Source: a virus | IMG/VR virus record: IMGVR_UViG_3300016476_001289 | Length of the DNA: 64,000 bases | Reading direction: 5' to 3' (one strand) | Shown here: in pieces, positions 2,581-52,528 of the stretch | Numbering within the stretch: position 1 is the stretch's first letter | How the letters are laid out: each line of letters opens with the position of its first letter | Translations under genes and position numbers: made by a program | The notes under the pieces: generated by a model | The model's database searches: none | The model's input: the letters and a program-made list of their open reading frames with translations, nothing else | Told to the model about the DNA's origin: nothing

Positions 2581-2587
2581 GGTCTTT

Positions 2588-18746: not shown

Positions 18747-19361
18747 ATGATTAGTAAAAAGATCGCTTCTTTAGAAGAGCGTTTAGCTAGACTTGAAGCT
18801 AAATTAATCAATAAATTTGATTATCTAGAACCCATTGAAAAATCTAACTACAAGAAACATAAATCTATCAATAAATCCCTTTATCTAGAACCCATTGAAA
18901 AATCAGACTATAGAAAACATAAATCTATCAATAAATCTCTTTATCTAGAACCTATTGAAAATACTAAACATAAATTTATTGATAAATCTCTTTATGTAGA
19001 ACCCATTGAAAAATCAGACTATAGAAAACATAAATCTATCAATAAATCCCTTTATCTAGAACCTATTGAAAAATTCGATTATGTAGAACCTATTGAAAAA
19101 TCTAACTATAAGAAACATAAATCTATCAATAAATCCCTTTATCTAGAACCTATCTTAAAAAAAAGTTCATTTAAATCTATGGTTGAAATGATAGACCCTA
19201 GAACAAAAAGAGTAGAAGCAGTAGATACTTTAGATAGCTTCTATGAGAATAATATGGATGATGAAGAAGTAATAGAAGCTTTAGATGAATTGAAATCAGG
19301 TTTAAAGTCAGAAGTATTAGTCCCTACAGGACAAGGTTATTATATATTAAAGCTTAAATAG
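18747..19361 (+). CDS. KIASLE-leader family protein with tandem peptide repeats
   Basis: ATG 18747 after AAAGGA. MISKKIASLEERLARLEAKL followed by YLEPIEKS repeats. Confidence 0.8.
   Translation: MISKKIASLEERLARLEAKLINKFDYLEPIEKSNYKKHKSINKSLYLEPIEKSDYRKHKSINKSLYLEPIENTKHKFIDKSLYVEPIEKSDYRKHKSINKSLYLEPIEKFDYVEPIEKSNYKKHKSINKSLYLEPILKKSSFKSMVEMIDPRTKRVEAVDTLDSFYENNMDDEEVIEALDELKSGLKSEVLVPTGQGYYILKLK
18822..19154 (+). repeat. Coding tandem repeat, ~60-nt unit (YLEPIEKSxYxKHKSINKSL) with shortened units
   Basis: Seven Y[LV]EPI anchors. All length variants preserve the frame. Confidence 0.9.
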
Positions 19362-19365
19362 GATA

Positions 19366-19713
19366 TTATTTGCTGGAAGCCATATCTAATACGGACATAT
19401 CACCTACTACGGTAGCCATATCAATCACTACTGACATATCACCTGCTATAATTGATATATCCCCTACGATTGTAGCCATATCGCTTACTACAGTAGATTC
19501 CATATCAGTTGAAGAAGCCATATCACTTACGGACACATCAGCCATATCACTTACTTCGGTAACCATATCTGTAGAAGAAGCCATATCAACCACTATGGTA
19601 GACATATCAGAAGAAGTCATATCGGTGGTTGTAGCAACGGATTTAGTTTCTTTATCTCCACTACAAGCGAGAAACAAGAAAGCACTTAAAAGAATAGTAA
19701 ATAGAGTTTTCAT
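19366..19713 (-). CDS. Lipoprotein with Asp-Met (DM) low-complexity repeats
   Basis: Signal peptide MKTLFTILLSAFLFLAC, then recurring xDM/xDI every 5-8 residues. Confidence 0.8.
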   Translation of the reverse strand: MKTLFTILLSAFLFLACSGDKETKSVATTTDMTSSDMSTIVVDMASSTDMVTEVSDMADVSVSDMASSTDMESTVVSDMATIVGDISIIAGDMSVVIDMATVVGDMSVLDMASSK

Positions 19714-19838
19714 AACTAACACCTTTTATTAGAGTTTATGTATTACACAAAACATAAAGCATAAACAAAATATTCAATACTACTTTTATAAAGTAGTATA
19801 TATAAGTATAAACTTTTATAAACAAAAGGACTCATAAA

Positions 19839-20195
19839 ATGATTAGTTCAAAAATCGCTTCTTTGGAAGCAAGATTAGCCAGACTCGAAGGCAAATTAAT
19901 GAGCAAAAAAGCTTGGGGTAAAACTCTTGAAGAAGAAGTAATGCCTCAAGTTGAAGCTGGTATTGCCGATGCAGGTGGAGAAATTGTAGATGTTAAATTA
20001 CAAAAAGGTACACACAATAGATGTCAAATGACAATTATGACTCCCAGAGGGATGAAAAGTGTAACTTGGCAAGTATTTACTGACTATGGTTACAATGAAT
20101 ATCTGTTTGAAGTAAATAATAAGATTATTCCTTCTCTAGATGAAGTTTCAGGTTATGAACTTGGTCAATACCTTGTATTGAAGGCTAGAGGATAG
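19839..20195 (+). CDS. KIASLE-leader family protein
   Basis: MISSKIASLEARLARLEGKLMSKKA plus a unique domain. AAGGA RBS. Confidence 0.85.
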   Translation: MISSKIASLEARLARLEGKLMSKKAWGKTLEEEVMPQVEAGIADAGGEIVDVKLQKGTHNRCQMTIMTPRGMKSVTWQVFTDYGYNEYLFEVNNKIIPSLDEVSGYELGQYLVLKARG

Positions 20196-20736
20196 AATCA
20201 TCATCATCTTCATTAGAATGAAAATAATGATATTTACGATCTTCTTCTAAGAGTTTTTTATATTCCCCATCGTCTTCTTCTATTTCTTTTTCTAATTCTT
20301 CTATTAAGATCTCCCTTTCGAGCTTCTCGTAAAAGGCTGCTTCTCTCATCTCTTGTTCTATCATAGATCTGATTTCTTCTCTTTCTTCAAGAAGTTCTTT
20401 CAACTCACCAAAGATACATTTATCAAAAGCATAAGGAATAGGGTATGAAATCCACCTAGTAGTATTTTCTCTCTCAAAAGAATTACAGAAACCAGCATTT
20501 AATTGAAGACCAAATTTCTCAAGGATAGGAGAAATCTCACATTCTCTTAATGGACGGTCATAAATAGTCTCAGGTGGGGTGTAATTAGAAAATGGTTGTA
20601 GGTGAGAGATAAGATCTCTAAGGATTTCTGTTTTGAGAGATTGGTCTGGTAAATAATCAGTAGGTTGGAAGAAATATTCGTAATGGATATTATTGTGACT
20701 GAAACTAATCACAAAGTAAAGATGATTACTATTCAT
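20185..20736 (-). CDS. Hypothetical protein, paralog of 18185-18658
   Basis: PPETIYDRPL motif and acidic tail. Confidence 0.7.
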   Translation of the reverse strand: MNSNHLYFVISFSHNNIHYEYFFQPTDYLPDQSLKTEILRDLISHLQPFSNYTPPETIYDRPLRECEISPILEKFGLQLNAGFCNSFERENTTRWISYPIPYAFDKCIFGELKELLEEREEIRSMIEQEMREAAFYEKLEREILIEELEKEIEEDDGEYKKLLEEDRKYHYFHSNEDDDDSIL

Positions 20737-20790
20737 AGTATTCCTTTGTTGTGGGTTTATAATGTATTATATTAAGAGGAGAATAGTAAG

Positions 20791-21072
20791 ATGAAAGAAT
20801 TAGATGATTATGATGTTTTATTATGTTTGATCTACCATTTACATCCATTTTTAGTAATGGATGTAGCTAAAGAGATACATATAAAGCCTGAAGAATTAGG
20901 TTTTATCCTAAGTGTGTTTAAAGACCACCCTGTAATATTAAAGCATAAAGAAGAAGCATTAAAAAATGATAATTATATAAGAGATATGGTTATTGGTATA
21001 TTTGAAGGGACTATATATAAAGAGGCTATCCTTTCGCTCTTTCTCTTGAATGAATCCCCCAATAGAACATAA
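20791..21072 (+). CDS. Hypothetical protein
   Basis: 93-aa ORF with GAGGAG RBS. Confidence 0.6.
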   Translation: MKELDDYDVLLCLIYHLHPFLVMDVAKEIHIKPEELGFILSVFKDHPVILKHKEEALKNDNYIRDMVIGIFEGTIYKEAILSLFLLNESPNRT

Positions 21073-21799
21073 TTTTTAATCGGGGGCTTAAAAAAGGTGT
21101 AGCTTCTTCTGGATCTTCACTATAAGCTTCAATAGCGACATCGAAATCATCTTGAAATTTTTTACCTACATATTCTATAAGACTAGGGTTCTTTTTGACT
21201 GCTTCTAAGACAAGTATTTTACTTTGTTTTAAAGTAGGTGAAAGAAAGATAAAATTAGTGGGGTCTGCCTTAACACAAGCAAAGGCTATATCAAAATCAT
21301 CATTATAAGAATTAAGTAGTTTATCTAATAAGTGGATGGCATAACCTGAATCAGACATAATATTAAAATCATTTCTAATATAGATTTTAGGGTCATCACA
21401 TAAGGGAAGAATGAAGTTCTTATCTTTTAGTAGTTTTGTGGGTAATTTACTAAGAAATCTTGAATCTATTGAACAGATAAGATTAGCTTTCTTTTTAGTA
21501 GTAATAGTGAAGTGTTGGGATAAGAACCATTCCATATTATATAAGAAGATAGGTTCATTTAGTGCTATTTCAATAGGTGTTAAGTCCCAAGTTAGTTCTT
21601 CAGTATCTAAAACAAGATCATCATCATATTTATCTACATTAGTAGTAAAAACTTCTGTGATATCCAGAGAAGTACATAGTAGTTGAAGGACTTCCTTATC
21701 CTTAGGTTTAGCTAAGGTGTATAGGCAAATATCTCTATTTTCAATAGATTTTTCAAAGAGTATAACTTTCATATAGTCTATCTCACTTTCATTGAACAT
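21026..21799 (-). CDS. DUF4116-like repeat protein
   Basis: C-terminal repeats DFDIAFACVK / KILVLEAVKKNPSLIEYV / DDFDVAIEA. Confidence 0.65.
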   Translation of the reverse strand: MFNESEIDYMKVILFEKSIENRDICLYTLAKPKDKEVLQLLCTSLDITEVFTTNVDKYDDDLVLDTEELTWDLTPIEIALNEPIFLYNMEWFLSQHFTITTKKKANLICSIDSRFLSKLPTKLLKDKNFILPLCDDPKIYIRNDFNIMSDSGYAIHLLDKLLNSYNDDFDIAFACVKADPTNFIFLSPTLKQSKILVLEAVKKNPSLIEYVGKKFQDDFDVAIEAYSEDPEEATPFLSPRLKIMFYWGIHSRERAKG

Positions 21800-21817
21800 A
21801 TTATATGAAAGTGGAAA

Positions 21818-21895
21818 ATAAAAAAGGGAACATCTGTTAAGACATTCCCTTTTCTACAAAAAAACTAACCAACCAACACAAAAAAGTGTTTGTTA
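21818..21895 (-). ncRNA. Candidate small RNA or attenuated leader
   Basis: Bounded by a sigma70-like promoter and an intrinsic terminator, no ORF, 5' hairpin. Confidence 0.45.
21820..21849 (-). terminator. Intrinsic terminator
   Basis: On the minus strand: GGGAAUGUCU-UAAC-AGAUGUUCCC-UUUUUU. Two G.U pairs form only on this strand. Confidence 0.8.
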
Positions 21896-21900
21896 AAATG

Positions 21901-21929
21901 TTTATAGCATAACTTATATAAACTAGCAA
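21901..21929 (-). promoter_or_regulatory. Sigma70-like promoter
   Basis: Minus strand TTGCTA-N17-TATAAA with extended -10 TGn. Confidence 0.55.
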
Positions 21930-21946
21930 ATTTATTAAGAGAAAAA

Positions 21947-22150
21947 ATGTACGAGATGTTATTTATGGGGCAACCTATACTTGTTTATGATGTATCTAGT
22001 GCTATAAGAGAAGGTTTAGTCTTTAAGGTGAAACAAATAAGTCTATATAAGACAGGTGAAGATACCTTGTTTTTCTTAGAATTAAAGAGTGGGATACATT
22101 ATAAGATTTTATTAGAATATTTAGATAGTGGGTGGAAGATCGTTAAATAA
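21947..22150 (+). CDS. Hypothetical protein
   Basis: 67-aa ORF, weak RBS. Confidence 0.4.
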   Translation: MYEMLFMGQPILVYDVSSAIREGLVFKVKQISLYKTGEDTLFFLELKSGIHYKILLEYLDSGWKIVK

Positions 22151-22691
22151 GTTTATCTACAAGACCATGTTTTAAACATTCTTCTGAATTAAACCATAGG
22201 TCTCTTTTAAGCATTTTTACAATTTGTTTCTTTTTAAGTTTAGAGTGTTTTTTATAGAACTTATAAAATTGTTCCATGAGTTTATCTAGGTTTGCTTTTT
22301 CATCTTTAAGGTTTTCATAAGTGCCTTCAGTCCATTGACTTACTTGATGAATAAGCATATAGCCATATTCTTGCATGAATCTCTTCTTACCCACCATAGA
22401 CAATAAAGTACCTGCACTAGCGACACCACCTTCTACATAGGTATAAACAGGTACTTTATTATTTAAAATATGACCTGCCCCAGCAAGACCGCTATATACA
22501 TCACCACCATAAGAGTGGATATGTAGGTGGATAACGGGTGGGATTTCTAAATCATAGGTGAGTTGTCTATCTAGGGATAATTGAGTAGCTTCTCTTAAAG
22601 TGCTGACTAATCCTTGAATTGATTTAGGATTTACTTCATCATAATAGTAGATATGTAAGTCTTTTCTTGTGATACCAGAAGATTCTAACAT
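22143..22691 (-). CDS. clpP: ClpP-family serine protease
   Basis: IHSYGGDV, ASAG (Ser), LIHQ (His), RD.W (Asp), GLVD. Confidence 0.85.
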   Translation of the reverse strand: MLESSGITRKDLHIYYYDEVNPKSIQGLVSTLREATQLSLDRQLTYDLEIPPVIHLHIHSYGGDVYSGLAGAGHILNNKVPVYTYVEGGVASAGTLLSMVGKKRFMQEYGYMLIHQVSQWTEGTYENLKDEKANLDKLMEQFYKFYKKHSKLKKKQIVKMLKRDLWFNSEECLKHGLVDKLI

Positions 22692-22763
22692 TTAAAATAG
22701 CCTTTCTTTTATTTATTAAATACATAGCATATTTATGAAAAGTCTAAATTCAAGGAGCTATGT

Positions 22764-23816
22764 ATGTCATGTAAGATACCAGCAGGGTCAGTAGCGACCC
22801 TAGTACAAGGGAATAAAGTTCTCTTTGATGGTGTATTATACAATCTAGATGATTGTGTGATAGAAAAAGGTGTACATTTTGAGACAAAAGCTAATGTAAA
22901 AGAAGTAGGTGTCGATTCACCTAAATCCGAAGCTAATGAATCAAATGAACAAAAAACAGAAGAACCTAAACCTAAAAAGTTTAAGAAACCTGTTGTTAAA
23001 CCATCCTCAGTGGATGAAAATATTGAAAATACTCAAGTACCACAACCACAAAAAAAGGATGATGAAATGGGATTACCTGTTCAAGCACCTCAAGATTCTA
23101 CACCAGGACAAGGGCAACCTGTTCAACCTATACAACAACCTGTAGGTTATCCACAACAACCTATGCAACCACCTGTAAATATGCAACTTCCACAAGGGTA
23201 TGCTTTACCTCCAGGATTTACTGTTCCACAACAAGCACAACAATACATTCCACAACAATTCATGCCTCAACAACCACAAGAGACTCATGCCACCACTGAA
23301 CATAATCAAGATGGTATGGATATGAACATGATTAAGACTATCTTGAACATAGCAGGGGATAATCCTGTTGTTCTCGTAGCCTTAATTGGTGCATATCTAG
23401 GTTTCACCTGGATGAAGAAGATGGAAAAGATCAAAGAAAAAGAAGCTGAAAATGGTGGTCAACACGCATCAGCTTGTGATAGTGATCGTAAGAGTCTTAA
23501 TTCTAAATTCTCTGATATGGACTTTAAAGTTCAAAAAATCGATATGCTTGAAAATAAAGTTAAGCAAATGGGTGATGTTAATGGTCGTCTTACTAAACTT
23601 GAAGAAAATAGTAATGGTTTAACCTTTAATGACACCACAGAACTTGAAGAAGCTTTAGCTAAAGTAGTTAAGAAAGTAGAAGCTCTTGATAAGAAGATTG
23701 CGTCATTAGTTGCAGGAACAACAGCACCTAAAGCAGTAGAACCTGTTAAGAAACCTACTAAAGCTAAAGAAACTAAATCTGTTGCAGAATTTCCACCTGA
23801 AGAAGATGATGAATAA
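22764..23816 (+). CDS. Membrane-anchored protein with Pro/Gln-rich linker and C-terminal coiled coil
   Basis: PQ-rich tract, one hydrophobic helix (VVLVALIGAYLGFTW), heptad tail. AAGGAG RBS. Confidence 0.7.
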   Translation: MSCKIPAGSVATLVQGNKVLFDGVLYNLDDCVIEKGVHFETKANVKEVGVDSPKSEANESNEQKTEEPKPKKFKKPVVKPSSVDENIENTQVPQPQKKDDEMGLPVQAPQDSTPGQGQPVQPIQQPVGYPQQPMQPPVNMQLPQGYALPPGFTVPQQAQQYIPQQFMPQQPQETHATTEHNQDGMDMNMIKTILNIAGDNPVVLVALIGAYLGFTWMKKMEKIKEKEAENGGQHASACDSDRKSLNSKFSDMDFKVQKIDMLENKVKQMGDVNGRLTKLEENSNGLTFNDTTELEEALAKVVKKVEALDKKIASLVAGTTAPKAVEPVKKPTKAKETKSVAEFPPEEDDE

Positions 23817-23878
23817 TTTTATATAATCGTATTTCTTATTTGTATAGTATGAGTTGAACTTTTAAAAAAAGGAAACTC

Positions 23879-24634
23879 ATGTTAAAATATCTCCCTATAT
23901 TATTGTTTATGTTTGCTTGTTCTAAAAATGAAGCACAACCTGTTGTTGTTAAAGATCAAGGTATTGTTGTTGTAAAAGACAAGTCTCTACCACTCGATCA
24001 AAGTCTACCTGAAAAAGACCAAGAAGTTAAAGCAGTAGACCCTGACAAAAAACACCCAATCCCTGAAACTGTTGATTGTGAAAAGTTCTTTACTGCTGAG
24101 GGGATTGCAGAAGCACATAAAACCAATTCACCTTATATTGCCGACAAAGAATATTTCTTGATTGAAAAAAATGCTGACTATGTTTTAACATTAAGACTAG
24201 GTTATCTACCACAAGAAAAGTTCCTTGCTATTTTCATGACAACAGCGGGGAAGAAAAAAGTCTGTTATGATAAAGAAACATCACTCATGTTCACTCTTTT
24301 ACATGATGAAGATACTGGAGAGAGAAGAAGCTATATGCTAGATGGTATCCACAATCAAAATTGTGGTACTGCTCGTAAGGTTCAAGATAAGAACAAAGCA
24401 GTAGGCATTTACTTAGTGCCTGAAAGAAGTAAGTTCTTTCAGTTTGCTATGGTTGCAAGAAGTATAGGTGCTTGGGCAATTATGGAGCATAAGAATTATA
24501 AAGGTATTGTAGGTCAACATTATAGTGAAAACCATTCACTTGCTTTAATGAATGGTTTTAGATGTGCTTATAAAGCTATGGGGTATACTCATCTCACAGT
24601 AACAAATTTACTCGATAACACAGTGAAAGACTAA
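23879..24634 (+). CDS. Lipoprotein, paralog family member 1
   Basis: Lipobox MFAC. IP...DCEK and RCAY.A.G shared with the next two ORFs. Confidence 0.75.
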   Translation: MLKYLPILLFMFACSKNEAQPVVVKDQGIVVVKDKSLPLDQSLPEKDQEVKAVDPDKKHPIPETVDCEKFFTAEGIAEAHKTNSPYIADKEYFLIEKNADYVLTLRLGYLPQEKFLAIFMTTAGKKKVCYDKETSLMFTLLHDEDTGERRSYMLDGIHNQNCGTARKVQDKNKAVGIYLVPERSKFFQFAMVARSIGAWAIMEHKNYKGIVGQHYSENHSLALMNGFRCAYKAMGYTHLTVTNLLDNTVKD

Positions 24635-24637
24635 GCT

Positions 24638-25378
24638 ATGTATAAATATCTATTAATTGTTGTATGTTTATTCTCTTGTAATAAGCAAACAGAAGCTCAA
24701 GAGAAGCAACCTGAAGTTAAACAAACTCAAACGGAAGTTAAACAAACTGAACCTGTTAAAGTAGCAGAACCCGTTAAGGTTAAAAACGGCAGTCTTAATA
24801 TCCCTAAAGGTAAAGATTGTGAAAAGCATCTCCCTAAAGATGCCCTTAAACAAAGTAAAAAAAATGATGGATATTACATCCCTAAAGAATCTTTTTGGTT
24901 TGTGAATATGAAAGGCGAAGGTGTATTATTAGCTAATTTCACGGTTGTAGACATGAAATTAAAGTTCACAGTCAATCTCTTGAATGGTAATAAAGTTAAC
25001 TGTATTGAAGAGAATAGTGATCTTGGTATTAGATTTAATAAACATCAAATCCATATCCTTGAATCTAAGTTCCCAAGAAACTGTAATGACCCAAGCAAAA
25101 CAGAGGAAAGAGTCGGTGCTATGGCTATTTATACACTTCCTTTAAATAGCACTCTTTTTAAAGAACTCTTATTAAAACCTGTTGAGTTTTTAGGTATAGA
25201 ATTAAAAGGAAAAGGGTATGCTTTTTTTCAAGTTACGAAAGAAGAAACCCCTATCGAACTACAAAATGCTGCTAGATGTGCTTATGAAGCATTTGGTGGA
25301 GCAGATCAAATTAACTTAGAAGATGAGGATTTCTTAATAGATACTCTAGCACATCCAGATGAAAATTCAAACGAGTAA
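24638..25378 (+). CDS. Lipoprotein, paralog family member 2
   Basis: Lipobox LFSC. IPKGKDC, PLNSTLFKELL, LQNAARCAY. Confidence 0.8.
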   Translation: MYKYLLIVVCLFSCNKQTEAQEKQPEVKQTQTEVKQTEPVKVAEPVKVKNGSLNIPKGKDCEKHLPKDALKQSKKNDGYYIPKESFWFVNMKGEGVLLANFTVVDMKLKFTVNLLNGNKVNCIEENSDLGIRFNKHQIHILESKFPRNCNDPSKTEERVGAMAIYTLPLNSTLFKELLLKPVEFLGIELKGKGYAFFQVTKEETPIELQNAARCAYEAFGGADQINLEDEDFLIDTLAHPDENSNE

Positions 25379-25379
25379 A

Positions 25380-26015
25380 ATGATGAAATACTATTTATTA
25401 ATGATTCTTATTGTTGTCTCTTCTTGTAAGGACAAAGAAAAAGTTAGTATCCCTAAAGGAAAAGACTGTGATGTCTATTTCCCACAAGATGCTATGGCTC
25501 AAAGTAAAAAAAATAATAACTTCTTTATTAATGAAAGAAGATCTATTTACACTGGAGATGAAGGGATCTTATTAACTAATCTCCTTATCAAAGACACTAA
25601 ATTCCACCTAGCTATTAATATCTTAAATGGTAATAAAGTCATTTGTATAAAAGAAAATAGTCTTCTTGGTGTAAGAATATTTGAAAATAATAACACCCAT
25701 TTAATCAAAGGCGATTTTGACAGAAATTGTAAACAACAATCTGACCCTAAAGGTAATGGGGCAATAGGATTATTTGAAGTTCCTTTAAATAGCACTTTAT
25801 TTAAAGAACTCCTAACAAAAAAAGTAGGTGTCATTGGTGTAGGTTTAGATAATGTTAATGCTTTATTTAAGCCATTAGACCAAGAAACTGCTTTAGATTT
25901 ACAAAATGCTGCTAGATGTGCTTATGATGCTTTTGGTGGAGAAGAGACTATTAATTTATCTAATGATAATCTTCTTATAGACACTGTTTATCATGTAGAT
26001 AAGCCAAACGATTAA
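25380..26015 (+). CDS. Lipoprotein, paralog family member 3
   Basis: Lipobox VSSC, same motifs as member 2. Start reassigned to 25380. Confidence 0.8.
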   Translation: MMKYYLLMILIVVSSCKDKEKVSIPKGKDCDVYFPQDAMAQSKKNNNFFINERRSIYTGDEGILLTNLLIKDTKFHLAINILNGNKVICIKENSLLGVRIFENNNTHLIKGDFDRNCKQQSDPKGNGAIGLFEVPLNSTLFKELLTKKVGVIGVGLDNVNALFKPLDQETALDLQNAARCAYDAFGGEETINLSNDNLLIDTVYHVDKPND

Positions 26016-26439
26016 TAATCTTTTTATAGATATAGATATATAGATATAAACATAACATAATAAGGAGTCTCCCATGAGATACCCACATATAACCAGAAGA
26101 GCTAGTTCTTTTTATTCACGAAGAGCTTCAGCTTCAGCTCCCTATGCAAAATGGAATCATGAAATCTTGAATATCAAAGAAGAAACCTATGTGTTTTTAG
26201 ATGAAGCTTTGAAAAAAATCGCTAGATTGAATAATGAATTAGTTCAAACCGCAGTCGAAGCGCAAGATCCAGAAGTTAAAAAAATCCTTAATTCTTTATT
26301 AAAATTGTATCAAACCTACCAAACTTCTCTCTATGAGAAAGCAGGTGATATACAAGAAGATTTAGGAAATGAAGTTGGTCATTCTTGGTAATATCTTCTT
26401 ATAGATATTGCTTATCATGTAGATAAGCCAAACGATTAA
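25969..26439 (+). repeat. 47-bp direct repeat pair (25969-26015 and 26393-26439) flanking one gene
   Basis: atcttcttatagaYaYtgYttatcatgtagataagccaaacgattaa, 44/47 identical. Confidence 0.9.
26074..26391 (+). CDS. Small helical protein with RRAS-repeat N-terminus
   Basis: TAAGGAG RBS. MRYPHITRRASSFYSRRASAS. Confidence 0.75.
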   Translation: MRYPHITRRASSFYSRRASASAPYAKWNHEILNIKEETYVFLDEALKKIARLNNELVQTAVEAQDPEVKKILNSLLKLYQTYQTSLYEKAGDIQEDLGNEVGHSW

Positions 26440-26671: not shown

Positions 26672-26682
26672 AGAGATTTCCT

Positions 26683-27438: not shown

Positions 27439-27470
27439 TCTTAAATGTCCTTTCTTTTTCTTGTCTTATA

Positions 27471-28235
27471 TTAAAATAATGTTTGTTGCTTTACATTTTC
27501 TTCATTTAACCATACCACTTCATTAAACTCTTTCATTTGGCAATTTAATATTGTCTTTAAAGGTTTAAAGGGCAACCATGTTGCTTTTTCTCCCTCACAG
27601 ACTATTACTTGCCCCTCTCTTCCTTTACACCATTCACCTAAATGACTAAAATCTATTTTATTAGATGAATGAGCATATCCCTTACCTTCATGTTGATAAG
27701 GTGGGTCGATAAACCAAGTAGCTTGTTCATTATCTATATCTTCATAAGACTTTTGTTCTATTGTCCAATGACGAATATGTTCTAATTGTTCTGCTATTTT
27801 AATCTTATTTAATTCAGTCCATGTGTTATAATTTCTAGGTTTATATACTTCACCTGATTTAGATATAAATCCTTGAACTGATTTCATACTACGACTTGTC
27901 CATTTAGTATCAGGTCTATAATTAGATGAATGTATCCAATAACCTATTAACCATTTAGCTTCTTGGGGGATATTATAATCATTGACTGATTTGTCAAAAT
28001 CTATCATAGGCAAGTCTAAGATTTCTTCTTTCTTAGCATGGATAAGATAATCCCACAGACCACAGATAACATCATATTTGTCATATAACTTAACTTGTTT
28101 ATGTGGGTAATGTAAGGCATAACAAGCAGACCCTGCAAATGGTTCTATTAGTATATTATGTTTAGGTGAAGGGTAGTGTTTAGCTAAATTATATTTACTA
28201 CCAAAGTAGCTAAAAAATGGTTTAAGTGGTTTCAT
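27471..28235 (-). CDS. Dam-like (alpha class) DNA adenine methyltransferase, copy 1
   Basis: YFGSK, EPFAGSA, FIDPPY. Confidence 0.85.
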   Translation of the reverse strand: MKPLKPFFSYFGSKYNLAKHYPSPKHNILIEPFAGSACYALHYPHKQVKLYDKYDVICGLWDYLIHAKKEEILDLPMIDFDKSVNDYNIPQEAKWLIGYWIHSSNYRPDTKWTSRSMKSVQGFISKSGEVYKPRNYNTWTELNKIKIAEQLEHIRHWTIEQKSYEDIDNEQATWFIDPPYQHEGKGYAHSSNKIDFSHLGEWCKGREGQVIVCEGEKATWLPFKPLKTILNCQMKEFNEVVWLNEENVKQQTLF

Positions 28236-28295
28236 TTTTTTTCCTTTATAGGATGAATATATATAATGTTAAACTATTATTATAGGAGATATACC

Positions 28296-28727
28296 ATGAT
28301 TAACTCAAAAATCGCTTCATTAGAAGCAAGATTAACTAGACTCGAAGGCAAATTAATGAGCAAAAAAGCAGGACATCAAATGCCTGACCCTGCTCTCGTA
28401 AAATTTCAAATCAAGACCCTTTTAAAAGAAGGTGCATATCAATTAGAAGGTTTTGAAGTTAAAGCATTAAGCCCACTTTCTTACTTTCCTGCTACCCATG
28501 CCATTCGTATTGTATGTATTAATGATCAAGGTAATTCAGTTGTACTTGATCTTCATTGTAGCAACAATGTAATTGTTGGACAAACATTGAATGTTTTCGA
28601 TCATATGTATAATACTAAAGTTGTTTATAATAACAGCAATGAAGATTTAGGTGGAGATTTTATTGGTGAAGATTTAACCAAACCAAGTACCGTAAGAGAT
28701 CTTATCAGTTTATTACAATTACAATAA
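28296..28727 (+). CDS. KIASLE-leader family protein
   Basis: ATG 28296 after AGGAG. MINSKIASLEARLTRLEGKLMSKKA. Confidence 0.85.
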   Translation: MINSKIASLEARLTRLEGKLMSKKAGHQMPDPALVKFQIKTLLKEGAYQLEGFEVKALSPLSYFPATHAIRIVCINDQGNSVVLDLHCSNNVIVGQTLNVFDHMYNTKVVYNNSNEDLGGDFIGEDLTKPSTVRDLISLLQLQ

Positions 28728-28731
28728 ACCA

Positions 28732-29466
28732 TTAGAATAAAGTTCTTTGTCTTATATTATTCTCATTTAACCATACCACCTCTTCAGTCCTACCACCTCC
28801 ACTATTTAATATCGTCTTTAAAGGTTGAAAAGGTAACCATTTAGCTTTATCACTTTCACAGACTATTACTTGTCCTTCTCTTCCTTTACACCATTCACCT
28901 AAATGACTAAAATCTATATTCTTTGAACTCTCTTTATAGACTTTCCCTTCACTCTCATAAGGTGGATCTATAAACCATGTAGCTTCTTCATTATCTATTA
29001 TATCATAAGACTTTTGTTCTATTGTCCAATGTCTTATATCATCCACCTGATTTGCTATTCTTTTCTTAGTAGTAGGATTCCAAGAATCTGCCCATTCTAT
29101 TTCAAATCTCTCACTAGCATAAGATGACATTTTAGTAGCAGGTATAGACCTAGCTTTAACTAACCAAAATCCTATTAACCATTTAGCTTCTTGTGGGATA
29201 TTAGGATAATCATCTATACTCTTACCTAATTCTATTAAAGGTAAATCTAATATCTCTTCTTTTTTCACCTTAATTAAGTAATCCCATATCCCACAAATAG
29301 CATCATATTTGTCATATAACTTAACTTGTTTATAGTGATAATGAAGAGCATAACAAGCAGATCCTGCAAAGGGTTCTATTAGAACATTGTATCTAGGTGA
29401 AGGATAATGTTTAGCTAAAAAGTATTTACTACCAAAATAGCTAAAAAATGGTTTAAGGGGTTTCAT
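28732..29466 (-). CDS. Dam-like DNA adenine methyltransferase, copy 2
   Basis: Close paralog of copy 1 with a different central region. Confidence 0.85.
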   Translation of the reverse strand: MKPLKPFFSYFGSKYFLAKHYPSPRYNVLIEPFAGSACYALHYHYKQVKLYDKYDAICGIWDYLIKVKKEEILDLPLIELGKSIDDYPNIPQEAKWLIGFWLVKARSIPATKMSSYASERFEIEWADSWNPTTKKRIANQVDDIRHWTIEQKSYDIIDNEEATWFIDPPYESEGKVYKESSKNIDFSHLGEWCKGREGQVIVCESDKAKWLPFQPLKTILNSGGGRTEEVVWLNENNIRQRTLF

Positions 29467-29526
29467 TTTTTTTCCTTTTATTTTATATCTAAGAATATAT
29501 GAAACTATTATTATAGGAGATATACC

Positions 29527-29931
29527 ATGATTAACTCAAAAATCGCTTCTTTAGAAGCAAGATTATCTAGACTCGAAGGCAAATTACAAAGAAGAATTGC
29601 TTCATCTTTCCCAACGAGAGAAGAATTTATAGAACTATTAGAGAGAAATTCTAGAGGTTGGTTCTCTAATTGGACTTGGATGGAAGGATTTAGTGATGGA
29701 CTACCCACAGAATATAAAAAGAGTATAGTTATGGGAGTACCTTCAAATAATGAAAGATTGTCGGTTACTCTTCTTTTTACTGAAGCTTTTGCTAAAGGCA
29801 CAATAACAATTAGAATTACCACCTTAAATGCAGATTTTAAAAAGAACCTTAAAACAGTACAATATAATTTAGATGATTTTTATACAACAGATGTAAATCA
29901 TCTTCTTGACACAATAAAAAGCATGATGTAA
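29527..29931 (+). CDS. KIASLE-leader family protein
   Basis: MINSKIASLEARLSRLEGKLQRRIAS. AGGAG RBS. Confidence 0.85.
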   Translation: MINSKIASLEARLSRLEGKLQRRIASSFPTREEFIELLERNSRGWFSNWTWMEGFSDGLPTEYKKSIVMGVPSNNERLSVTLLFTEAFAKGTITIRITTLNADFKKNLKTVQYNLDDFYTTDVNHLLDTIKSMM

Positions 29932-29937
29932 TTTGTC

Positions 29938-29965
29938 TTTACTCTATTTAAATTTATAGAGTAAA
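29938..29965. terminator. Hairpin, probable terminator
   Basis: TTTACTCTAT-N8-ATAGAGTAAA perfect 10-bp stem just after the stop. Confidence 0.45.
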
Positions 29966-30003
29966 ATGGTGATTTCCTGTATAATATTTTCAGAAGACTT
30001 TCT

Positions 30004-30360
30004 ATGTTTAAAACTACTCAAATAAATGATTTTATCATCACCGATTTTATAGACGATTCTCAATATAAATATGTTTTAGGCGACTTACACGATTTAGATT
30101 GGGAAATGTCTTTATCAGGTGCTTGGTTTCAAGCTATTCTATTTTGTAATAAGTTAAGTGAAATTTATAATTTACCTTATGCTTATCTTGTATTTAAAGA
30201 TGAAAAAGGTAATTTGGAAGCTGAAGATACAGGTAAAAATGGAATAAGACTACCAAGTCCAAAACTTCAAATCTCTTTATATGAAGATGAATTAACTGAA
30301 GAGAATGATAAAGGTAATAGATTTAGGGTGTGGATGTATTCTTCTCAACCCAGTAATTAG
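30004..30360 (+). CDS. Reduced FGE-sulfatase (SUMF1)-like domain protein
   Basis: WFQAILFCNKLS...LPYAY...NGIRLPS resembles the WxxAxxFCNxLS..GYRLPT core. Confidence 0.55.
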   Translation: MFKTTQINDFIITDFIDDSQYKYVLGDLHDLDWEMSLSGAWFQAILFCNKLSEIYNLPYAYLVFKDEKGNLEAEDTGKNGIRLPSPKLQISLYEDELTEENDKGNRFRVWMYSSQPSN

Positions 30361-30775
30361 CACCTCTTCTAGCAGAATCTTTATTTTTATATCCCACCAT
30401 AGTTGCTATTTCTGACCATTTAAGTCCTTTTTCTCTTAATTCAAAAGCAACTCTTCCTCTACTTTTTCTTGTATTTTCTATTTCTATTCCTGTTCTATCT
30501 CTATATTTATAAAAGTTATCTCTAAGAGTTCTAATGGGCATACCTAATAATCTTGCTATATCTTTATGAGTCATACCAAGTTTTGCGAGGGTGTTCGCAT
30601 ACTCTATCATTTTGCTATTATTTGGCTTATTTAGGTTATTTAAAACTTCCCATTTGTATGCTTTTCGCCTAGCATTTCTATCACTGATGCCTAAAACTTC
30701 ACCTACTTCGATCCATTTCATACCTTGAGATTTTAACTCATAAGCTAATTTCCACCCTTCATAATCAGCTTTCAT
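30323..30775 (-). CDS. Protein with three tandem helix-turn-helix units
   Basis: GMKWIEVGEVLG / GMTHKDIARLLG / GLKWSEIATMVG. Confidence 0.75.
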   Translation of the reverse strand: MKADYEGWKLAYELKSQGMKWIEVGEVLGISDRNARRKAYKWEVLNNLNKPNNSKMIEYANTLAKLGMTHKDIARLLGMPIRTLRDNFYKYRDRTGIEIENTRKSRGRVAFELREKGLKWSEIATMVGYKNKDSARRGANYWVEKNTSTP

Positions 30776-31062
30776 TTCTCAATCCCCTTTATAGCTTCAT
30801 ATATGTTTCTATATGTTTCTGTATTCTCACCACACTCAACGACAACTTTTTTAATTGCCTGTCCCTTATAATCAAAAGTCATGTTATATAAAGTATAACC
30901 TATATTAAAATCTACTTTTATGATTTCAATGTTAGGTGGTTTTATTTCACTTTCTGATTTAAGGATATTAGCACCAAGTTGGGTTTTTAAAATGCGAGGT
31001 ATAGCATTTTTATGGCTATATACACCTATGTTGTAAGGTATATTAATATTATTGACTTTCAT
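30772..31062 (-). CDS. Hypothetical protein
   Basis: 96-aa ORF coupled (ATGA) to the HTH gene. Confidence 0.55.
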   Translation of the reverse strand: MKVNNINIPYNIGVYSHKNAIPRILKTQLGANILKSESEIKPPNIEIIKVDFNIGYTLYNMTFDYKGQAIKKVVVECGENTETYRNIYEAIKGIEK

Positions 31063-31076
31063 ATCTACACTTCCTT

Positions 31077-31427
31077 GTGAGATTTACGATGAATATGAGT
31101 GAACAAAAAAAACTTTTTGAACATATCTTTAATACCACAGAGGGTATTACATTACTAGATGTTGTTGTATTACCTAGTGTTTTATCAGGTGACACGACCC
31201 ATCAAATTAGAGTTGAGTATAAAAACCCTAAAGGACTAACCGTATTAAATGTGAATATAGATGAGATACTTATTAAAGAAGTAATTATAAGAGTCCATCA
31301 AGGTGGTAGATTACCTTATGGTGAATATACTAAAGGCAAAGTTATAACAAAACTAGGTGATTTTAGAGGTAAGAAAATTAAAACAGATGTGATAGACAAG
31401 TTAGCTTATGAGTGTTCTTATACTTAA
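31077..31427 (+). CDS. Hypothetical protein (start uncertain)
   Basis: ORF with several possible starts, first of a + strand run. Confidence 0.5.
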   Translation: MRFTMNMSEQKKLFEHIFNTTEGITLLDVVVLPSVLSGDTTHQIRVEYKNPKGLTVLNVNIDEILIKEVIIRVHQGGRLPYGEYTKGKVITKLGDFRGKKIKTDVIDKLAYECSYT

Positions 31428-31472
31428 TTTATAGAAAAAGATAGGTGAACTATAAAATGAGTGAACTTGTAA

Positions 31473-31808
31473 ATGAAAAGATTTGCTAGACTAGAAAATC
31501 GTATATCTCAAATAAAGTACGACACTTTATTCTATTACTTAAAATTAAAATTAGATACAGGCATTCTTGTGTTGGAAGATTTAACTACACATGAGAATTC
31601 TTTATATATGAGATATGGTTATGATAAAATATGTCTGTATATTTACATAGAAAATTCTAGTAATGTCGTAGGGTATATAGATATATATATGAAGTATCAA
31701 CCTGATAATTTAAAAAGTGCTTTTCCCATATCTTTACCTATATCTAATATAGATGGGATAGCTAAGGTGATAGCAACTAAAATAAACAAGTATTTAGAAA
31801 CTCACTAA
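31473..31808 (+). CDS. Degenerate-leader family protein, cargo paralogous to 31856 ORF
   Basis: MKRFARLENRI. SLY..Y, LY..I.NS....G..DI and SLP...I..I...I..K.N.Y are shared with the next ORF. Confidence 0.65.
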   Translation: MKRFARLENRISQIKYDTLFYYLKLKLDTGILVLEDLTTHENSLYMRYGYDKICLYIYIENSSNVVGYIDIYMKYQPDNLKSAFPISLPISNIDGIAKVIATKINKYLETH

Positions 31809-31855
31809 TTAGTTTATATACATATTGTTAGAAGTACATATAGGAGAGATATAAA

Positions 31856-32305
31856 ATGATTCGTAATAAAATTGCTTCTCTTGAAGCTCGTTTAGCTAGA
31901 CTTGAAAATAAGTTAGCAGCTAAACAAGTTGACTATAACTTATGGCAACTTTACGAAAAGCTAGTAAGAGAACTAGAAACTGAAGGCTATTATACTGATA
32001 GAGATTCTTTCACTTTTGAAAGTATCGCTTCACCTGATGGTTCTTTATATGTTCAATATAAAGGTAATAATGTTGTTGCTTATGATAATGAAGATGCTCC
32101 TTATGGTGAATATGGAGATGCCTTATTATATGTAAATATCAAAAACTCTATGAGAAGTCCAGGTTTTGTAGATATTAGTATTGCCCCAAGTCTTCGTGAT
32201 TTATCCCACACTCGAATGGTCTCTAGTCTTCCATCAACGGATATAGTTAAGATCAGTCAATTCATCCAAAATAAAATGAACACTTATATTCATTCCCTAT
32301 CTTAA
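31856..32305 (+). CDS. KIASLE-leader family protein
   Basis: MIRNKIASLEARLARLENKLAAK. AGGAG RBS. Confidence 0.85.
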   Translation: MIRNKIASLEARLARLENKLAAKQVDYNLWQLYEKLVRELETEGYYTDRDSFTFESIASPDGSLYVQYKGNNVVAYDNEDAPYGEYGDALLYVNIKNSMRSPGFVDISIAPSLRDLSHTRMVSSLPSTDIVKISQFIQNKMNTYIHSLS

Positions 32306-32320
32306 AAAAGGAGATATCAA

Positions 32321-32860
32321 ATGATTCGTAATAAAATTGCGTCATTAGAAGCTCGTTTAGCTAATTTAGAAGCTAAACTCAGAAAGAAAGCAGCTATAGA
32401 AGTCGATCTATTTCATCTTTTTTTGAAACTACTAAACAAATTACAAGGCTCTTTCAAAGCAGAAGAAGAGTATAATGACCCTAATGCGTATGATGATAGT
32501 GTTTGGGGGACTCCTTATGATAATTATGATCCCACAGTTATCGTAAGATCTACATTTAAAAGAGTATCCGCTGATGATACCTCTTTATATATTGAATATT
32601 CTATGGTAATTGAGGACCCTTTGACTACCTATAGAAGCAAAGGAGAGAAGAGTCCTACTTTATATATCCATATCTTTAAAGAGGGTTTGGATCTAAAAAT
32701 CGAAACAGATTCAGAGCCTATTACCCCTTCTACAAAGAATGTAAAAAAAATATGGGGTCCAAAAACCATACCTTCCAATTTCCAATCCGTTTTAGAAGAG
32801 ATAGAAGAAGATATGAAAGACCTTCTAGAAAAAGAAGATTTTCCTCTTTTAAAAAAATAA
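32321..32860 (+). CDS. KIASLE-leader family protein
   Basis: MIRNKIASLEARLANLEAKLRKKAA. AGGAG RBS. Confidence 0.85.
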   Translation: MIRNKIASLEARLANLEAKLRKKAAIEVDLFHLFLKLLNKLQGSFKAEEEYNDPNAYDDSVWGTPYDNYDPTVIVRSTFKRVSADDTSLYIEYSMVIEDPLTTYRSKGEKSPTLYIHIFKEGLDLKIETDSEPITPSTKNVKKIWGPKTIPSNFQSVLEEIEEDMKDLLEKEDFPLLKK

Positions 32861-32898
32861 TATCTTTCTAACACAACCTAAAAAAAGAGACATTTAAA

Positions 32899-33363
32899 AT
32901 GATTCGTAATAAAATTGCTTCTCTTGAAGCTCGTTTAGCTCAACTTGAAAAAAAAGCAGGTATCTTTCAAAACTATGGACAACTATCACCTTTAAATAAG
33001 ATGATGGTTGATTTACAAGAAGAAGGTAGACAAAGAAAATTAGAGACTTCTTCGGGTAGTGTAGAAGCCAATTACTTTTTATATAAATTATTTGAAAAAG
33101 TAGAGCTTTACTCTAATTATGATCTTGAAACAAAAGCTTCTCGTAATGCCGATGTTTTAATTGCTACACATAGTAGTGATGATACCCAAAACGAAATTAA
33201 AATTTCCTTGAAAATAGATCACTGGGGAAAAGAAGTAGTATCTGTATTTGTTCGCCCTGAAAGAAGACCCTCTTCTTCTTTTGAAGTAAGTATTAATGAC
33301 TCCGATCTTGCTAAAAAAATAGCAAAAACCTTAGACATTAAGCTACAAGAAGTTATGTACTAA
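32899..33363 (+). CDS. KIASLE-leader family protein
   Basis: MIRNKIASLEARLAQLEKKAG. Confidence 0.85.
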   Translation: MIRNKIASLEARLAQLEKKAGIFQNYGQLSPLNKMMVDLQEEGRQRKLETSSGSVEANYFLYKLFEKVELYSNYDLETKASRNADVLIATHSSDDTQNEIKISLKIDHWGKEVVSVFVRPERRPSSSFEVSINDSDLAKKIAKTLDIKLQEVMY

Positions 33364-33364
33364 A

Positions 33365-33446
33365 AACCTATTGTTCAAAAACAGCACTTTTTGAACATTA
33401 CATATAACCTATTGTTCAAAATTGCCACTTTTTGAACATTACATAT
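33365..33446. repeat. Two tandem 41-bp units, each a TGTTCAAAA..TTTTGAACA inverted repeat
   Basis: Directly visible between convergent genes. The units differ only at the loop and inner stem edge. Confidence 0.85.
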
Positions 33447-33789
33447 ATTCTTTCTCTATAAGTCCTATTAAATTATTCAATGTCACACTCACTTCTTTAA
33501 GTTCTGTGTTCCCTATAAACTTAGCTACTGTAAATACTTGATTCTTTACATTTAGAACTTCTTTTAACTCAGGCTTCTTTGTCACTGTTTCTAAGTCTTC
33601 TAATATCGCATTTACAGGTGATAAATAATCTTGTTCATATAATTGATCCATGTGAGCATTAATGTGTGTGATTACATTATTCTTTACAGCATATTGTAAA
33701 GACCAACAATCATCAAAAGACATCATTGAATTTACCATGTCTCTTAAATTAAATAAATGCTCATAGAGTTCTTCATTCTTTAAAGTCAT
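33439..33789 (-). CDS. Hypothetical protein
   Basis: 116-aa ORF with AAAGGA RBS. Confidence 0.6.
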   Translation of the reverse strand: MTLKNEELYEHLFNLRDMVNSMMSFDDCWSLQYAVKNNVITHINAHMDQLYEQDYLSPVNAILEDLETVTKKPELKEVLNVKNQVFTVAKFIGNTELKEVSVTLNNLIGLIEKEYM

Positions 33790-33845
33790 TTTTAATAAAT
33801 CCTTTCTTATAGGTATATAGAAGTATATACATAGGAGTTAAAAAT

Positions 33846-34199
33846 ATGTGGTTCGTTTATGTAATACAATCCCACCAAAAAAGATACAATAAAAAAGGAA
33901 CTAAAGAATTACCAGGTTTCTATTATGTAGGTTGCACTGTTGATCTTAATAGAAGACTTAGGCAACATAATGGTGAAATAGTTGGTGGAGCTAAATTTAC
34001 ATCTCAATATAGACCCTGGTCTCCAAGAGCTGTTTATGGTCCTTATCCAAATAGGTCTATCGCTATGAAAGCAGAAAAAGCTCTTAAATCTAAGAGGGGT
34101 ATATCAAGAACACAATGGACTTTAGAAGATAGTAAATATTGTTGTGGTCCAGGTGTTGAACACGAATGGGTTATTCTTAATAATAAGTCTATAACTTAA
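33846..34199 (+). CDS. GIY-YIG endonuclease, Slx1-like
   Basis: FVY..YVG.T....RRLRQHNG...GGAK.T...RPW....E. Confidence 0.85.
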   Translation: MWFVYVIQSHQKRYNKKGTKELPGFYYVGCTVDLNRRLRQHNGEIVGGAKFTSQYRPWSPRAVYGPYPNRSIAMKAEKALKSKRGISRTQWTLEDSKYCCGPGVEHEWVILNNKSIT

Positions 34200-34228
34200 A
34201 GTTATATATACTTTATATAGGAGTTATA

Positions 34229-34651
34229 ATGAATCACTTAAAAATTGCTAGTCTTGAAGATAGAATTGCAAGACTAGAAAAAAAACTTATGAAAAAATCT
34301 TTCTTCAATACTATGTTGAGTCGTGAATTACAAAGATTCTCAGATGATTTTATGGAAGCTGCTAATTATTCTGGTGGGGATTCTACTATGAAAATCATTA
34401 ACCACCCAAACCAAGAAGATAGTGATTTGGTTTTTGAATATGTTCTTCAACCCGAAGGACATAACCCACTAACTTTCTATATCAAAGTAGATACTCAAGA
34501 AGTCCAAAGAGGATTATATGAAATAATAGTTTCTAGAAGTCCCTACTTTAACAAAATGCCCTTCAATATCCTTTTACCCCTAGATGTAAAGAAATTATAT
34601 ACAAAAGTAATAATGAACTTAGAACATTGGTTTATATCAAGAAAAATTTAA
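34229..34651 (+). CDS. KIASLE-leader family protein
   Basis: MNHLKIASLEDRIARLEKKLMKKS. AGGAG RBS. Confidence 0.85.
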   Translation: MNHLKIASLEDRIARLEKKLMKKSFFNTMLSRELQRFSDDFMEAANYSGGDSTMKIINHPNQEDSDLVFEYVLQPEGHNPLTFYIKVDTQEVQRGLYEIIVSRSPYFNKMPFNILLPLDVKKLYTKVIMNLEHWFISRKI

Positions 34652-52462: not shown

Positions 52463-52528
52463 TATAACAAAAAACGATACCTATCTTGTTATAGGTAGGT
52501 AATCTCTTTTAAGAAAAGGAAAAGCAAC

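Follow-up and report, generated by a model that had tools for sequence, protein, structure and literature searches.

A conserved N-terminal handle on variable small proteins from one clade of freshwater huge phages

Tagged genes in a methyltransferase-rich island

The window (the whole 64,000-nucleotide stretch of viral DNA analysed here, IMG/VR record IMGVR_UViG_3300016476_001289) carries a family of small plus-strand genes, the products of which open with a common leader, or ‘tag’. A leader HMM (first 22 residues), run against the six-frame translation of the window, returns eight clear members (E 2.7e-15 to 1.6e-12), set sharply apart from chance in that the next matches lie at E 1.2 and 1.3. 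These are the same eight genes that a first-pass annotation had grouped by their leader, and all are found where it had placed them, at E 1e-12 to 1e-15. It had also put forward a degenerate ninth, starting at 31473, whose tag is one of the noise-level HMM matches and so is not significant taken alone; membership of this gene is nonetheless upheld by its body, which is homologous to that of 31856 (blastp 3e-6, 31% over 72 aa). The DNA similarity shared among members starts at the ribosome-binding site and stops ~66 nt into the gene. The features of the locus are:

18747..19361, plus strand: member A, 204 aa; tag HMM E 1.6e-12
19839..20195, plus strand: member B, 118 aa; tag HMM E 6.9e-15
22143..22691, minus strand: ClpP-family serine protease inside the island; matches PHROG head-maturation-protease families
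27471-28235 and 28732-29466, minus strand: a paralogous pair of D12 adenine methyltransferase genes; depending on the relative, one to three tag genes occupy the slot between them
28296..28727, plus strand: member C, 143 aa; tag HMM E 2.7e-15; divergent from the D12 methyltransferase at 27471-28235
29527..29931, plus strand: member D, 134 aa; tag HMM E 1e-14; divergent from the paralogous D12 methyltransferase at 28732-29466
31473..31808, plus strand: member I, 111 aa; decayed tag; body homologous to member E
31856..32305, plus strand: member E, 149 aa; tag HMM E 5.4e-14; heads the tandem run E-F-G
32321..32860, plus strand: member F, 179 aa; tag HMM E 2.4e-13
32899..33363, plus strand: member G, 154 aa; tag HMM E 9.5e-14
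34229..34651, plus strand: member H, 140 aa; tag HMM E 6.2e-14; downstream of a GIY-YIG gene

Whilst the minus-strand neighbours had been described as metabolic, they are in fact DNA methyltransferases (two D12-class, one N6_N4), an HTH protein and unknowns. Within this methyltransferase-rich island the tag genes act as cassettes subject to gain, loss and remodelling. The block I-E-F-G, along with D and H, is missing in relatives that are ~90% identical in the flanks; taken genome by genome, D is missing from L059 and gives way to a different body in L051, I is truncated in L001 and absent in L002, L059 and L051, and H is absent from both L059 and L051. Member A runs from its tag through a 60-nt tandem repeat (18800-19074, 4.7 copies) to a ~60-aa C-terminal domain that is common to many relatives; its slot holds, in relatives, the tag with domain 1, with domains 1 and 2, or with domain 2, and four different domain combinations are seen at a single slot across genomes. 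When compared with its closest relative, the body of member F has a dN/dS of 0.98 (about 1). A sigma-70 promoter scan performed no better than shuffles (78 vs 89), such that no expression class can be assigned to the members, and a motif found upstream of the members in a second phage genome (G001, below) proved to be family-specific.

In all, we collected ~116 distinct small proteins (47-221 aa) with the tag, which belong without exception to a single clade of freshwater huge phages; when 1.84 billion proteins were searched exhaustively, 33 clusters of 47-217 aa were obtained, with two exceptions that are unrelated repeat proteins (199 and 207 aa). About 10 clear copies of the tag are found in G001, a complete 316-kb relative. 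The major capsid protein of G001 has >2,000 relatives in databases (E below 1e-10), indicating that the phage clade is large; the clade is without a cultured member. Searches of the members against Pfam, PHROGs, PDB sequences and cultured phages (tblastn) gave no match beyond coiled-coil noise.

The tag, its heptads and its hinge

The tag is a helical, N-terminal segment of roughly 25 residues, made up of two consecutive K/R-h-x-x-h-E heptads and then a basic ‘hinge’, K/R-K/R-A/S, with the heptads in the register K5(g), I6(a), L9(d), E10(e), R12(g), L13(a), L16(d), E17(e). The earlier suggestion that RLARLE fits the R-h-x-x-h-E trimer motif is borne out, as the motif is present twice in register, seven residues apart; Arg(g)-h(a)-x-x-h(d)-Glu(e) specifies parallel trimers (PMC3653964). 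After R12, a residue that our collecting pattern demanded, come I/L13, L/I16 and E17, giving Arg at g, hydrophobic residues at a and d and Glu at e; E17, which the pattern left free, is kept in 65/69 distinct tags. At further pattern-free positions, A11 is found in 59/69, A14 in 58/69 and R15 in 54/69, and both A7 and S8 are invariant in 31/31 profile-collected members, being retained even in degenerate variants that lack the Glu residues. A homotrimer prediction using three copies of member E scored 0.24, below the mark, and is given no weight here.

Different codons are used at the invariant residues of the tag (Ser TCN/AGT, Arg AGA/CGT, Leu TTA/CTY), which means that it is conserved as protein and rules out a DNA-level repeat as the source of its conservation. 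The handle is real, N-terminal, selected as protein and restricted to small proteins of the clade; it is a previously undescribed assembly or addressing handle. Judging from the heptad pattern, it would form a short coiled coil of parallel helices, in all likelihood a trimer, that bundles the variable bodies. The conserved outer face of the tag also suggests one partner common to the members and, since solvent-facing residues are as conserved as those of the core, the handle probably plugs every member into that partner as well. Recent common descent, together with gene conversion between paralogues, could account in part for conservation on all faces of the helix.

The hinge is found across much of the family: its dibasic form followed by Ala or Ser occurs in 60/116 members, compared to 1.5% of control windows, and K/R-x-A-S/G/A in 85/116, where control windows give 0.7-1.5% for hinge motifs. 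Dibasic sites had already been listed for the window, and these are all present, as KKA in 19839, 28296, 32321 and 32899, KKS in 34229 and RRIAS in 29527; no such site is found in 18747 or 31856.

Could the tag instead be an enzyme recognition site, either for a basophilic protein kinase or as an N-terminal degradation signal for a Clp-type machine? The K/R-x-x-S arrangement does occur both in the core of the tag and in the hinge, and K5, A7 and S8 are invariant though A7 and S8 point outward in the coiled-coil register; however, a coiled coil accounts better for the heptads and for the paired K/R and E positions, and no kinase was identified. K/R-x-A-S is over-represented across G001 proteins (114 vs 42.6, sd 6.1), remains so without the tag families and a scaffold candidate discussed below (79 vs 39.1, with eleven control motifs flat) and shows the same excess in the window (23 vs 7.3), but the excess in G001 is confounded by Ala-Ala avoidance, which inflates A-S dipeptides. 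In the window a ClpP-family gene is interspersed with the members, and in G001 one lies close to genes with degenerate tags, a link that is positional only. Overall, we consider recognition by such an enzyme to be highly unlikely.

The variable bodies

Beyond the tag, the sequences fall into about 30 clusters of bodies, most of which are not linkable by sequence: a profile-profile comparison of the clusters (hhalign) gave no significant links, with a best probability of 19%. Some relationships can nonetheless be traced within the window, where 31473, 31856 and 32321 have homologous bodies and five members are connected via sequence or pattern.

AlphaFold models for two members from different subgroups point to a common architecture. 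The model for member B (m1399cc7e3209) has a helix at 2-24 (pLDDT 93), a helix at 30-44, three strands and a helix at 85-104, and that for member E (m9ffa1f1c35e6) a helix at 2-23, a helix at 27-42, five strands and a helix at 130-148; both have an identical order of elements, predicted to form a helix-sheet-helix sandwich with an antiparallel sheet, at moderate confidence (pLDDT 67 and 74) and with a possible bias towards a common fold in one of the two, for which a family-wide alignment was used. Both models meet the same weak PDB neighbours, e.g. frataxin/CyaY at Z 5-6, and fold searches with them (PDB Foldseek, VIA wide, BFVD) did not rise above background (best Z 7.0 and 5.4), the viral matches being to uncharacterised proteins only. 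A search of the ESM Atlas likewise gave no lead.

The first-pass annotation had proposed ‘swappable cargo’ behind a constant leader. A constant tag on diverse small proteins is indeed what we find, but the cargo is not unrelated: the three homologous bodies, along with the single fold seen in two models, imply that a large part of the diversity arose as one scaffold diverged. With a median pI of 5.6 the bodies are only mildly acidic, too little to support DNA-binding or DNA-mimic functions.

Synthesising these observations, we somewhat favour a lineage-specific two-part family, in which a coiled-coil handle is joined to a diverging helix-sheet-helix body, within one clade of freshwater huge phages. 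The bodies would then be the working ends, probably acting on the host and possibly against host defences, a role suggested solely by the methyltransferase-rich island and by turnover between strains. A short, portable N-terminal handle carried by the genes that vary most in these phages would flag their host-interaction repertoire directly from sequence.

Possible partners of the handle and comparison with known systems

In G001 the head module consists of the portal, a 1266-aa protein, the head maturation protease at 289836-291320, a 694-aa protein that is acidic and rich in repeats, a 223-aa protein and the major capsid protein; the 694-aa protein, encoded between protease and capsid protein, is our scaffold candidate. 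It is here that the hinge motifs reappear. Dibasic sites followed by Ala or Ser number 21 in this protein vs 2.6 expected (about 8-fold), and the 4-residue hinge motif 7 vs 0.7 expected (7 being reached in 0/20,000 shuffles), although these counts come in part from internal repeats; across the whole G001 proteome the dibasic motif shows no excess (189 vs 190 expected). Only 14/328 G001 ORFs place the hinge motif within residues 8-40, namely 12 small proteins of the tag type, the scaffold candidate and one further ORF.

Such a distribution is consistent with the tag being a capsid-targeting sequence, which would place members on the prohead scaffold or core, to be cut at the hinge by the head protease so that the bodies are packaged and injected as early effectors. 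The tag is strictly N-terminal with a conserved hinge after it, and the internal proteins of T4 offer a precedent, as diverse defence proteins with only a targeting sequence in common (PMC3012670). Against this, several members (18747 and 31856 in the window) are without the hinge motif, the bodies are mildly acidic, some of the counts in the scaffold candidate stem from its repeats, and Ala-Ala avoidance confounds the K/R-x-A-S excess of G001. The earlier proposal had also called for the leader to be sought at the N-termini of scaffold and capsid proteins, and in G001 the tag HMM found no match on the scaffold, capsid or portal protein. We retain capsid targeting as a tentative possibility, and regard the loading of tagged proteins into the virus head as possible.

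Several candidates for the cleavage machinery or its sites were rejected or weakened. The N-terminal K-L-A-S of the G001 capsid protein was rejected as a cleavage site, as the region is conserved and relatives have A-A where G001 has A-S. The ClpP-like protein is weakened as a candidate head protease given that G001 possesses a separate one in its head module, and the ClpP-family protease lies far from that module there. Searches of G001 for S77, S78 and PF05065 gave no match, and no Ntn-hydrolase homologue was found there.

Another view is that members are small external virion appendages or adaptors, held by a trimeric helix bundle in a socket of the baseplate, fibre or capsid, with bodies that bind host surfaces. 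A tag-like N-terminus with a hinge-like stretch is seen on orthologous tail-fibre-like proteins (1125-1283 aa) of related huge phages, but scores only 3.7-8.8 bits with a tag HMM built without them. N-terminal helical bundles are known to dock small trimeric fibres to baseplates (Pam3 gp24, PMC9608196), and high variability with gain and loss is typical of host-range proteins; the bodies, however, are modelled at moderate confidence as helix-sheet-helix sandwiches rather than as beta-rich receptor-binding folds, and no match to a fibre or receptor-binding family was found. Whilst one of the 10 G001 members lies directly downstream of a fibre operon, nearly all members lie outside tail modules, and the fibre genes of the window (at 0.2-11.6 kb) have no member nearby. 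We think this arrangement quite unlikely. A tail fibre assembly protein (TFA) was also considered and rejected, the domain order being reversed in the members and Pfam and PHROGs giving no match.

Returning to the handle-and-body family that we favour, the prohead core, with removal of the handle at the hinge, is a partner to which we would give only a minority share of belief; a similar share goes to there being no virion partner, members then being soluble oligomeric effectors, an external site on the virion is improbable, and what is left falls to something else. A wider scheme, which we hold to be doubtful, has a trimerising handle load 10-20 interchangeable small effectors per genome on the prohead core; they would be freed by a head protease with dibasic-Ala/Ser as its code, by which the scaffold too is dismantled. 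If true, virions would bring with them a strain-specific set of pre-made anti-defence proteins. The link between hinge motif and scaffold candidate provides a concrete guess at the cleavage code of the head protease and, were the tag an addressing signal, it would be a second, structurally different case of the T4 principle as well as a tool for loading foreign proteins.

How does the tag compare with known modules? The exact R-h-x-x-h-E motif of coronin-1 and of engineered cortexillin and GCN4 variants is found at tag residues 12-17, with a Lys version one heptad earlier, matching in its spacing a solved trimer with two complemented motifs (PMC3653964); unlike these known trimers, the tag has only about 2.5 heptads and its outward-facing residues are also conserved. 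As in the gp24 fibres of cyanophage Pam3, a conserved helical module for trimerisation or docking is joined to a variable binding domain, whereas in tail fibre assembly proteins the conserved helical module is C-terminal (PMC9608196) rather than N-terminal.

Giant phages are reported to carry many packaged proteins and to have several head proteins cut by the prohead protease (PMC7411985, PMC10052503); no sequence relation was found between the tag family and the N-terminally processed head or ejection proteins of SPN3US and its relatives. There is also a likeness to the internal proteins of T4 (IPI-III, Alt), in that a short N-terminal peptide is common to polymorphic small proteins, the genes lie in variable regions, and a candidate protease motif follows the peptide and recurs in the scaffold candidate of G001; in T4 a single cleavage motif is common to the scaffold and the tagged proteins. 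Unlike the T4 case, the tag described here spans ~25 residues, in which two heptads of a coiled coil are clearly seen ahead of a basic hinge, and its bodies appear to have one fold, where the cargo of T4 is unrelated.

The tag family in the window and its relatives

The window belongs to an uncultured huge phage of low GC (31%; contig 371,667 bp), for which no cultured relative was found. All nine ORFs named in the first-pass annotation are present on its plus strand (members A 18747, B 19839, C 28296, D 29527, I 31473, E 31856, F 32321, G 32899 and H 34229; window starts). Eight are clear members (E 2.7e-15 to 1.6e-12) when a 22-residue N-terminal profile is run against all stop-to-stop window frames; all other matches in the same search lie at E >1. 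The tag of ORF 31473, described earlier as a degenerate ninth gene, is itself at noise level (E >1), but since its body is homologous to that of 31856 (blastp 3e-6) we retain it as a member with a decayed tag.

The shared N-terminus is real, and extends to the whole phage clade. Searched exhaustively with the profile, 1.84 billion representative proteins yielded 33 clusters (E up to 1e-3), all of 47-217 aa with an N-terminal tag, except for two unrelated repeat proteins (199 and 207 aa); a second search, permitting long proteins, gave 55 matches of 91-186 aa plus one lineage of 1125-1283 aa, made up of tail-fibre-like proteins with a tag-like N-terminus. A metagenome scan gave 38 loci, several of them in synteny with the window (72-94% identical DNA), and a complete 316-kb relative from IMG/VR (G001; 31% GC, proteins 24-77% identical to the window's) carries 10 members together with about nine degenerate or basic variants.

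G001 also holds further N-terminal tag types with a K/R-L-A-S-L core, all followed by the same basic ‘hinge’: a basic eight-residue-repeat tag on four paralogues, paired divergently with ordinary tag genes, and another K/R-L-A-S-L variant on two tandem genes. Separately, a 350-aa protein has a region rich in Pro and Gln, a single membrane helix and, at its C-terminus, a coiled coil; within the coiled coil is a tag-like K-K-I-A-S-L stretch, which G001 conserves.

Tag-like sequences outside the main family
G001 149825-152353 (locus L022), minus: variant K/R-L-A-S-L tags, shared core and hinge
G001 7185-7550 and 7904-8236, strand not given: variant K/R-L-A-S-L tags, shared core and hinge
Window 22764-23816, plus; G001 85830-86858: 350-aa coiled-coil protein, adjoining the ClpP-like gene in the window
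Window 26074-26391, plus: 105-aa ORF with two N-terminal R-R-A-S motifs eight residues apart, flanked by 47-bp direct repeats

Anatomy of the tag and hinge

In the DNA alignment, conservation runs from the ribosome-binding site to ~66 nt into the gene and then ends. In 72 distinct DNAs encoding the tag, drawn from the window and from relatives, the codon families used for the invariant residues are mixed (Ser TCN/AGT, Arg AGA/CGT, Leu TTA/CTY), which argues that the tag is kept by selection on the peptide, and rules it out as a DNA repeat. It begins four residues past Met1 in 67 of 78 proteins; one subgroup, with a proper ribosome-binding site, has an N-terminus five residues longer.

The hydrophobic residues (positions 6, 9, 13, 16 and 20) follow an a/d heptad pattern, placing K5 and R12 at g, and E10 and E17 at e. 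The motif Arg(g)-h(a)-x-x-h(d)-Glu(e) thereby occurs twice in succession, with a spacing of seven residues. It directs helices into parallel three-stranded coiled coils, and a structure has been solved with exactly the tag's two-copy arrangement (PMC3653964). Residues 2-23/24 form a single helix in both of our AlphaFold models (pLDDT 93 in the better one). The most likely reading of the tag is a short coiled-coil handle, probably trimeric.

Its outer face is also conserved: A7 and S8 point outwards and are invariant in all 31 profile-collected members, outward A11, A14 and R15 are retained in 54-59 of 69 distinct tags, and the K/R-h-A-S-L core persists in degenerate G001 variants that have lost the glutamates. 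After the helix comes the conserved basic hinge, at the break between helices 1 and 2 in both models. Within 15 residues, a dibasic pair plus A/S occurs in 60 of 116 distinct small members (1.5% of control windows, taken from the members' bodies) and K/R-x-A-S/G/A in 85 (0.7% of controls). In both features, outer face and hinge, the tag exceeds a plain oligomerisation module.

In some members the A-S-L-E-A codons make up a palindrome of 5-7 bp, after which the minus strand has a T run, an arrangement flagged as terminator-like; this is probably incidental, because members using other codons for these residues do not have it.

Terminator-like palindromes at A-S-L-E-A codons
Window 19855-19872, 28312-28329, 29543-29560, 31874-31887 and 32917-32930, minus

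Bodies and cassette turnover

Member bodies form about 30 sequence clusters, none of which could be joined by profile comparison. The bodies of E, F and I are nevertheless homologous, those of H and G can be aligned to them by pattern, and modelling gives E (tandem group) and B (dispersed group) an identical order of elements: first the tag helix, then a second helix, a 3-5-stranded antiparallel sheet and a C-terminal helix. The two models share their weak PDB neighbours, frataxin/CyaY among them, at Z 5-6, a background level that assigns no function. Given this shared order and the E/F/I homology, the earlier description of unrelated, ‘swappable’ cargo is too strong, and the bodies are better explained as one small fold that has diverged rapidly. 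Genuine domain shuffling is seen as well, at a slot adjoining a conserved gene (18185-18658) that relatives keep at 98-100% identity.

Arrangements at the shuffling slot
Window: tag, repeat, domain 1
L046: tag, domain 1
L039: tag, domain 1, domain 2
L038: tag, domain 2

Member A contains a 60-nt in-frame tandem repeat (window 18800-19074; 4.7 copies, 81% matches) that is missing from its L046 orthologue. The I-E-F-G block (31473-33363) is absent as a whole, as is H, from relatives ~90% identical in the flanks; D is missing in L059, with a differently bodied member at its slot in L051; I is truncated in L001; and the slot between two minus-strand D12 methyltransferase genes (27471-28235 and 28732-29466) holds one, two or three members, depending on the relative. 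Purifying selection acts on E and G (dN/dS 0.13-0.41), while the F body stands at 0.98. Neighbouring genes encode five DNA methyltransferases, an HTH protein, a GIY-YIG protein, lipoproteins and a ClpP-family protease. Such turnover, in such a neighbourhood, is typical of accessory host-interaction genes.

Candidate partners of the tag

Our best reading is that the tag handle attaches the small proteins of this diversifying family to one common partner. The first-pass annotation proposed that this partner is the prohead core, with the tag removed by a protease at the hinge, a model we regard as possible, if rather unlikely. The genome-wide tag scan called for in that annotation, run on the complete relative G001, found no tag on a capsid, scaffold or portal protein.

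G001 head module
285-298 kb: portal, 1266-aa protein, head maturation protease, acidic repeat-rich 694-aa protein, 223-aa protein, major capsid protein

One new clue is in favour of the prohead core. The 694-aa protein, our scaffold candidate, contains the four-residue hinge motif seven times where its own composition predicts 0.7 (reached in 0 of 20,000 shuffles); dibasic plus A/S occurs 21 times against 2.6 expected, and is at expectation over the whole G001 proteome (189 vs 190). At residues 8-40 the hinge motif is found in 14 of 328 G001 ORFs, comprising twelve tag-type small proteins, the scaffold candidate and one other, with the caveat that the tag paralogues are not independent. T4 uses a single protease motif both to remove the targeting peptide and to dismantle the scaffold, and the enrichment is therefore the pattern that the prohead-core model predicts; it is mainly this that lifts the model from improbable to a tentative option. 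As support for head loading of the members, the link is circumstantial, and some of the scaffold sites lie inside internal repeats.

Two protease candidates are present in the clade.

Protease candidates
Window 22143-22691, minus; G001 80092-80712: ClpP-family protein standing alone, away from the head module
G001 289836-291320: 494-aa head-maturation-protease homologue, inside the head module

The broader tetrapeptide K/R-x-A-S is in excess across the G001 proteome (114 vs 42.6 expected, sd 6.1; 79 vs 39.1 without the tag families and scaffold candidate), albeit confounded there by a ten-fold avoidance of Ala-Ala dipeptides (31 vs 321 expected), and in the window's ORFs (23 vs 7.3). Eleven control motifs in G001 are all flat. 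The excess is at the protein level, with mixed Ser codons, and peaks at nine copies each in the scaffold candidate and a 967-aa protein (G001 306638-309541). Short palindromes are strongly avoided in both phages, in patterns that differ between them (GCWGC once in 316 kb of G001; in the window, GCNNGC only twice and CGNCG never), which is probably restriction-site avoidance.

Alternatively, the members could be external virion appendages. This is suggested by the fibre-like proteins of 1125-1283 aa in related huge phages, which open with a helix and hinge resembling those of the tag, and by one G001 member at the end of a fibre operon; however, these fibre N-termini score only 3.7-8.8 bits against an independent tag profile, and the members otherwise lie outside tail modules. 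Several proteins of varied length beside fibre genes share a different N-terminus, M-F-K/L-A-T-H-G-I-x-K-P.

Fibre-associated N-termini
L047 16502-19879, minus: tail-fibre-like protein with tag-like start; also proteins P0035, P0070, P0071, P0074 and P0075
Window 2498-3298, plus; G001 24077-26193 and 51960-52664; L039 2829-5579: M-F-K/L-A-T-H-G-I-x-K-P proteins

Returning to the handle with a common partner, the tag family is itself undescribed, and it follows the principles of known tags or handles.
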